Below are positions 54,799-55,037 of a stretch of 64,000 bases of DNA, in pieces. The notes beneath the pieces were generated by a model. That model made no database searches and was not told where the DNA came from. It saw only the letters and a program-made list of their open reading frames with translations. Origin of the DNA: Escherichia coli (lineage in GTDB: Bacteria; Pseudomonadota; Gammaproteobacteria; Enterobacterales; Enterobacteriaceae); assembly GCF_003018235.1 (NCBI RefSeq), contig NZ_CP027437.1. One strand, written 5' to 3'. Each line of letters opens with the position of its first letter. Positions within the stretch are counted from its first letter, which is position 1. Made by a program: the position numbers and the translations under genes.

Positions 54799-55037
54799 AT
54801 TTGTTGACTGCATATCTTATTCGTACTGTCAGAACGAATAAATTATTCATATTTAAAATATAAATTAAATTTAACATCTTAAATATGAATGTTTCTGTTT
54901 TTAAAAAGCTTCTTTTGTCAGGCTTTTTTCTTATTTTTAATGCCGTAATTTAATTCATATTGAAGGGTTCTCGTAAAACGTAAATAATTCCTGCGTAGGA
55001 CTTTTGTTTTGCAGTTTTTACGTCACAAGGGATTATA

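Follow-up and report, generated by a model that had tools for sequence, protein, structure and literature searches.

The AT-rich tract between tufA and chiA in the Escherichia coli chromosome is, taking the explanation as a whole, highly probably the control region of chiA, an accessory gene. Under this explanation a competent sigma-70 promoter would lie at the right end of a stretch of about 160 bp with 12-28% GC that starts right after the tufA terminator, and H-NS together with StpA would coat the AT-rich DNA and keep RNA polymerase from productive initiation, so that chiA would be cryptic in the laboratory. The H-NS coat would probably also extend over the AT-rich start of chiA (~200 bp), and the tufA terminator would stop str-operon transcription from entering the H-NS filament, insulating the tract from the heavy transcription of that operon. 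Expression of chiA would be switched on by removal of H-NS or by the counter-silencer BglJ-RcsB, acting directly or indirectly.

The locus was analysed within a 64,000-nucleotide stretch of E. coli DNA (the window; positions below refer to it unless stated otherwise), and was identified as tufA-chiA from the annotation of near-identical genomes. Gene order on the plus strand is rpsL-rpsG-fusA-tufA (the str operon), chiA, bfd and bfr, followed by the gsp type II secretion genes on the minus strand. Coordinates of the individual features are collected in Table 1. Overall, chiA has 50.3% GC, with 38% in its first 200 bp and 51.3% in the remainder. The gene also contains a 108-bp direct repeat (55482-55589 and 55785-55892, 83% identical), presumably corresponding to duplicated N-terminal carbohydrate-binding modules.

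Table 1. Features of the tufA-chiA locus, with positions in the 64-kb window.
Feature	Coordinates	Strand	Description
tufA (EF-Tu)	53562-54746	+	Last gene of the str operon; stop codon 54744-54746; GC-balanced left flank
tufA intrinsic terminator	54770-54797	+	12-bp stem, -19 kcal/mol, z = -4.5 (terminator scan, RNA fold)
AT-rich tract	54799-55037 (239 bp)		Between the end of the tufA terminator and the chiA ATG
Upstream AT-rich tract	54799-54959		Spans about -196 to -36, counted from the chiA start site
Near-perfect palindrome	54817-54841		TTATTCGTACTGTCAGAACGAATAA; -178 to -154; candidate operator
chiA sigma-70 core promoter	54960-54988	+	-35 TTGAAG 54960-54965, 17-bp spacer, -10 AATAAT 54983-54988
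chiA 5' UTR	54995-55037	+	Published transcription start (~54995, +/-1) to ATG
chiA	55038-57740	+	900 aa, periplasmic/secreted endochitinase; ATG at 55038
AT-rich 5' end of chiA coding sequence	55038-55237	+	38% GC, unusually conserved

The core promoter, TTGAAG and AATAAT separated by 17 bp, was the sole sigma-70-like match in the interval 54600-55300 and agrees with the consensus at 9 of 12 positions. In K-12 the chiA start site corresponds to position 3467918 of NC_000913.2, an earlier mapping that was confirmed by 5'-RACE (Salscheider et al. 2014, PMC3950696). The chiA ATG of K-12 is at 3469853 in NC_000913.3. With an offset between the two versions at chiA that we take, from the coordinates of other genes, to be 1978 bp, the start site precedes the ATG by 43 nt and falls at about 54995 in the window. 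The published start thereby falls 7 nt past the -10 hexamer, and promoter match and start mapping agree. A Shine-Dalgarno sequence (AAGGGA) is present at 55027-55032. No structure was detected in the chiA 5' UTR (z = 0.1), and Rfam matches in 54600-55300, searched with a permissive threshold, reached at most 23 bits, compared with gathering thresholds of 45-57, and were centred on the terminator hairpin.

GC content was 26.4% in the tract (54799-55037) and 51.9% across the 64-kb window, which places the tract ~5.5 sd low among 239-bp windows (sd 4.7 points). Windows of this length with GC this low made up 0.08% of the total, every one of them overlapping the tufA-chiA locus, and the lowest 239-bp value in the 64 kb was 23.0%, at 54837-55075 by sliding-window GC. 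The 12-28% GC range given above is that of 60-bp windows within 54799-54959, and its AT-rich core (54840-54899) has 12% GC. A sequence-only reading of this DNA had described about 240 bp of A/T-dominated sequence between the tufA terminator and the chiA ATG, and had proposed a sliding-window GC calculation as a check; the description was accurate, with exact coordinates and both quoted A/T-rich strings present, and the calculation put the tract far below the window average with the 64-kb minimum overlapping it. The same reading had seen a sharp contrast with GC-balanced flanking genes, which was correct on the tufA side but not uniformly so on the chiA side, where the first 200 bp have 38% GC.

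Runs of at least 4 A/T bases numbered 10 in the tract, against 6.0 +/- 2.0 expected from its own composition (p ~0.04), and the longest pure A/T run was 26 bp (p ~0.015). TpA steps in the tract were not enriched beyond composition, and AA/TT phasing was weak, peaking at 11.5-12 bp (p ~0.02) and not at the helical 10-10.5 bp. For comparison with other spacers, intergenic regions of at least 40 bp were taken from annotation transferred from a 98.7%-identical genome, and the tufA-chiA spacer, at 29.2% GC, was the lowest among 34 such regions (pooled 41.8%). Four others, pabA-argD, yhfL-cysG, nirC-nirD and chiA-bfd, were nearly as AT-rich (30.6-33.3% GC), so that the tract is the extreme of a continuum rather than a separate class, and composition by itself is not diagnostic. 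The yhfL-cysG intergenic region (25438-25688) was the second-lowest GC spot (30.7%), with a 239-bp minimum of 26.8% at 25416-25654. The chiA-bfd spacer (57741-57908, 33.3% GC) includes the bfd promoter region, and chiA is bracketed by this and the tufA-chiA spacer, two of the three lowest-GC segments in the 64 kb.

Figures of this kind would also be met in an ordinary AT-rich spacer, shaped by promoter, UP-like or terminator-proximal needs, with low chiA expression due to a missing activator and no silencing at all. The low intergenic average and the four similar spacers point that way, as do the absence of the H-NS consensus motif from the tract (see below) and the count of promoter-like sites, which at 1 found versus 2.2 +/- 1.8 in shuffles is not an enrichment; on the same count a 'promoter island' reading was rejected. 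An ordinary spacer is nevertheless very unlikely, given that the tract is still the GC minimum of 64 kb, that the core promoter fits the sigma-70 consensus well (9/12 with a 17-bp spacer), and that chiA, for which H-NS repression is published, is derepressed in hns stpA cells without an added activator.

The H-NS reading of the tract is supported by the literature rather than by the sequence. Repression of the K-12 chiA promoter by H-NS goes back to Francetic et al. (2000, Mol Microbiol 35:1506), as cited in PMC3950696; chiA has been named 'another H-NS silenced gene' (PMC5797941), and the type II secretion system that secretes the chitinase has been described as H-NS silenced (PMC6302416). 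In an hns stpA bglJ triple mutant, chiA expression measured by qRT-PCR was similar to that in a bglJ-constitutive strain (PMC3950696). Derepression data of this kind come from an hns stpA double mutant and therefore do not alone prove direct action of H-NS. In vitro binding was reportedly shown in the Francetic study of 2000. In the Grainger ChIP paper, chiA is absent from the main text. As a high-affinity nucleation motif for H-NS, tCGATAAATT has been described (Lang et al. 2007, PMC2094087). With the motif given as TCGATAAATT, no match within 2 mismatches was found in 54799-55037; two 8/10 matches occur just downstream of the tract, at 55169-55178 and 55197-55206, and across the 64-kb window the motif was not enriched (65 found, 55.9 +/- 7.7 expected). 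A high-affinity motif helps but is not obligatory for H-NS targets. A call made from composition can be right, as here, where it needed outside evidence for confirmation. Nucleation and spreading of H-NS would take place in the upstream tract (54799-54959), and H-NS may spread from there into the chiA coding sequence, making 55038-55237 a possible downstream extension of the H-NS-bound region.

Control by specific regulators was weighed alongside silencing. BglJ-RcsB activates a lacZ fusion of the tufA-chiA intergenic fragment (PMC3950696), and the tract contains the palindrome listed in Table 1, in which 11 of 12 arm positions pair, which was matched in 1.4% of composition-preserving shuffles, and which was also recovered as an inverted repeat in the repeat listing. 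It is unchanged in 7 alleles except at base 2. Conceivably, then, the tract is chiefly a platform for such regulators, whether BglJ-RcsB or a dimeric factor at the palindrome or both, and H-NS has a secondary, general role. An activated intergenic fragment, and a palindrome that is improbable by composition (p ~0.014) and conserved inside an otherwise fast-changing tract, are what a platform would lead one to expect; however, no BglJ-RcsB box was identified at chiA, mutation of a predicted motif ~150 bp upstream had no effect, activation by BglJ-RcsB may in the authors' opinion be indirect, via relief of H-NS repression, and hns stpA cells express chiA as strongly as activated cells do (all PMC3950696). 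As the main role of the tract a regulator platform is quite improbable, and as an addition to H-NS silencing such a platform is possible. A combined arrangement, which we hold to be rather unlikely, would have the palindrome (-178 to -154) act as the operator for a specific counter-silencer, while the conserved AT-rich start of chiA (~200 bp) would serve as a downstream element that H-NS bridges to the upstream tract; because no BglJ-RcsB box has been found, the palindrome could supply the missing direct input. Two further assignments in this part of the tract were dropped. The palindrome was not adopted as a second terminator, its hairpin being weak (-8.3 kcal/mol, z = -2.0), and an ARG-box or Fur-box at GAATAAATTATTC (54836-54848) was rejected by eye on spacing and matches, which do not fit.

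Conservation was assessed by comparing chiA-positive alleles (7-8 per comparison) from the window, K-12, O169:H41, CFT073, APEC O2:K1, EAEC 042, capybara strain A23 and BL21. Of 18 polymorphic sites in the tract, 16 lie upstream of the -35 hexamer and 2 in the 5' UTR, while the interval containing the -35, spacer, -10 and start site (54949-55005) does not vary among 7 alleles. Nowhere in the locus is polymorphism higher than in the upstream tract, yet every allele has 26.4-27.2% GC, and this turnover of sequence at constant GC points to a constraint on composition and not on sequence. Constancy of GC in the face of rapid change would fit a protein that recognises AT content and the shape of the groove instead of a sequence motif. 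Within 55038-55237, 1 segregating site was found among 7 aligned alleles, and pairwise identity was 99.5% compared with 97.2-98.4% for the rest of chiA; similarly, 55000-55199 has 2 segregating sites where ~8 would be expected from the locus average of ~4 per 100 bp. The interval 55000-55237 (~35-38% GC) is unusually invariant as a whole (Poisson p ~0.01 before correction for multiple windows), which could reflect a downstream H-NS element, translation or signal-peptide constraint, or chance. In BL21-AI, ~640 bp of the 5' half of chiA are missing (in the comparison with window 55333-56009) with the promoter tract intact, and the gene is annotated only as 'carbohydrate-binding protein'.

The closest known system is the chiA (yheB) promoter of K-12, which occupies the same locus with tufA upstream and bfd-bfr-gsp downstream. 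The K-12 tract is 97.5% identical to that of the window, and the 6 substitutions between them are all upstream of the -35 (54809, 54862, 54867, 54878, 54907 and 54913); from the -35 through the spacer, -10, start site and 5' UTR to the end of the first 200 coding bases, the two alleles are the same or almost the same. The start site, the dependence on H-NS and the activation of the intergenic-fragment fusion by BglJ-RcsB were published for K-12, and the window allele probably behaves like the K-12 allele. ChiA has 897 aa in K-12 and 900 aa in the window, and the gsp genes of K-12 are without an IS21-family insertion, whereas the secretion operon of the window is interrupted in gspM. The inserted IS21-family element is 1954 bp long (59753-61706), encodes istA (340 aa) and istB (260 aa), and has a 5-bp direct repeat, GAGAG, on either side (59748-59752 and 61707-61711). 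Neither K-12 nor an otherwise 98.7%-identical O169:H41 genome carries it. On account of this insertion, the ChiA-exporting type II secretion system is probably broken in the window strain.

Among 5426 complete E. coli genomes, 5423 have the 3' end of tufA, 3163 the tract and 3162 chiA (58%); the tract travels with chiA as an accessory module. A chiA-less O157:H7 genome shares 99.1% identity with the window up to 54798. Beyond this point homology is lost until 57855, from where bfd-bfr align at only 77.5%. The core/accessory breakpoint is at 54798/54799, where the tract starts, and the first base of the tract thus marks the left border of a polymorphic block with deep divergence. In O157:H7 and in strain TOE51, bfd directly follows tuf, most of the gsp cluster is gone, and a shortened prepilin peptidase gene is left before rpsJ. 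A pan-genome study likewise lists chiA, gsp, bfd and bfr as co-distributed accessory genes (PMC11390585). The bfd-bfr segment of the window (57855-58635) and the corresponding O157:H7 segment (6173-6957) are 77.5% identical at the DNA level, compared with 99.1% in the adjacent str operon, so that chiA/gsp-positive and -negative haplotypes carry very old or introgressed bfd-bfr alleles. Outside E. coli, an exact 32-nt search with the core promoter, by which diverged relatives are missed, returned 1 of ~100,000 species-representative genomes, and the contig concerned is E. coli-like. This contig and its neighbourhood call for a remark on labelling: DXKH01000010.1, from a human-gut metagenome-assembled genome labelled Citrobacter sp., is 97.4% identical to the window through tufA-chiA-bfd-bfr-gsp, which suggests that the assembled genome is mis-binned or mislabelled.

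A breakpoint at the first base of the tract raises the question of whether the tract is chiefly an evolutionary scar, left where an old recombination or insertion event introduced chiA-bfd-bfr-gsp, with AT-rich DNA as the favoured breakpoint and no regulatory role of the tract itself. The loss of O157:H7 identity (99.1%) at 54798 with its return at 57855 at 77.5%, and the joint inheritance of chiA and gsp, are in agreement with such a junction. A junction origin and a regulatory role are, however, mutually compatible, a mapped promoter and start site lie inside the tract, and the alleles have retained their AT content in spite of many substitutions, which speaks for selection acting on composition; a scar devoid of regulatory function is exceedingly unlikely.

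Silencing of chiA by H-NS would have its nearest parallels in bgl and proU, operons that H-NS silences via upstream and downstream regulatory elements. Both are named in Lang et al. 2007 (PMC2094087), and bgl is likewise counter-silenced by BglJ-RcsB (PMC3950696). The likeness lies in AT-rich DNA on either side of a competent promoter, which at chiA runs into the 5' coding region. Matches to the high-affinity motif are present at bgl and proU but not, within 2 mismatches, in the chiA tract, and the two operons have downstream elements where that of chiA is only a candidate. The xenogeneic silencing of AT-rich, horizontally acquired islands was reportedly described by Navarre and by Lucchini in 2006. 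With such islands chiA shares its accessory, patchy distribution, an AT-rich H-NS target at the edge, and a partner (gsp) that is also H-NS silenced; it differs in that only ~400 bp around the promoter are AT-rich, and the 2.7-kb gene, unlike classical silenced islands, has 50.3% GC like its host. The sequence-only reading had called the composition typical of H-NS-bound, xenogeneically silenced promoters. Its first half is supported by the published H-NS repression in K-12, and its second half only in part: an accessory module with a sharp boundary agrees with it, a gene body AT-richer than the host does not exist, and because of the host-like GC of chiA the word 'xenogeneic' is only partly apt.

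H-NS control of chiA is already known and has been in the literature since 2000; as a discovery the tract matters little, and it is best regarded as a textbook-style example of H-NS silencing. The present analysis concerns its composition, promoter position, conservation pattern, accessory distribution and block boundary, and the new detail is the co-occurrence of tract and chiA in 58% of genomes, the breakpoint at 54798, the polymorphism of the tract at fixed GC, and the host-like GC of chiA itself. As accessory traits, ChiA and the type II secretion system that serves it have been connected with adherence and with E. coli associated with mastitis and colitis (PMC11390585). The make-up of the promoter, with an invariant core, a fast-evolving upstream tract of fixed composition, and a sharp step from core to accessory DNA at the tufA terminator, helps to interpret differences in ChiA expression between strains.
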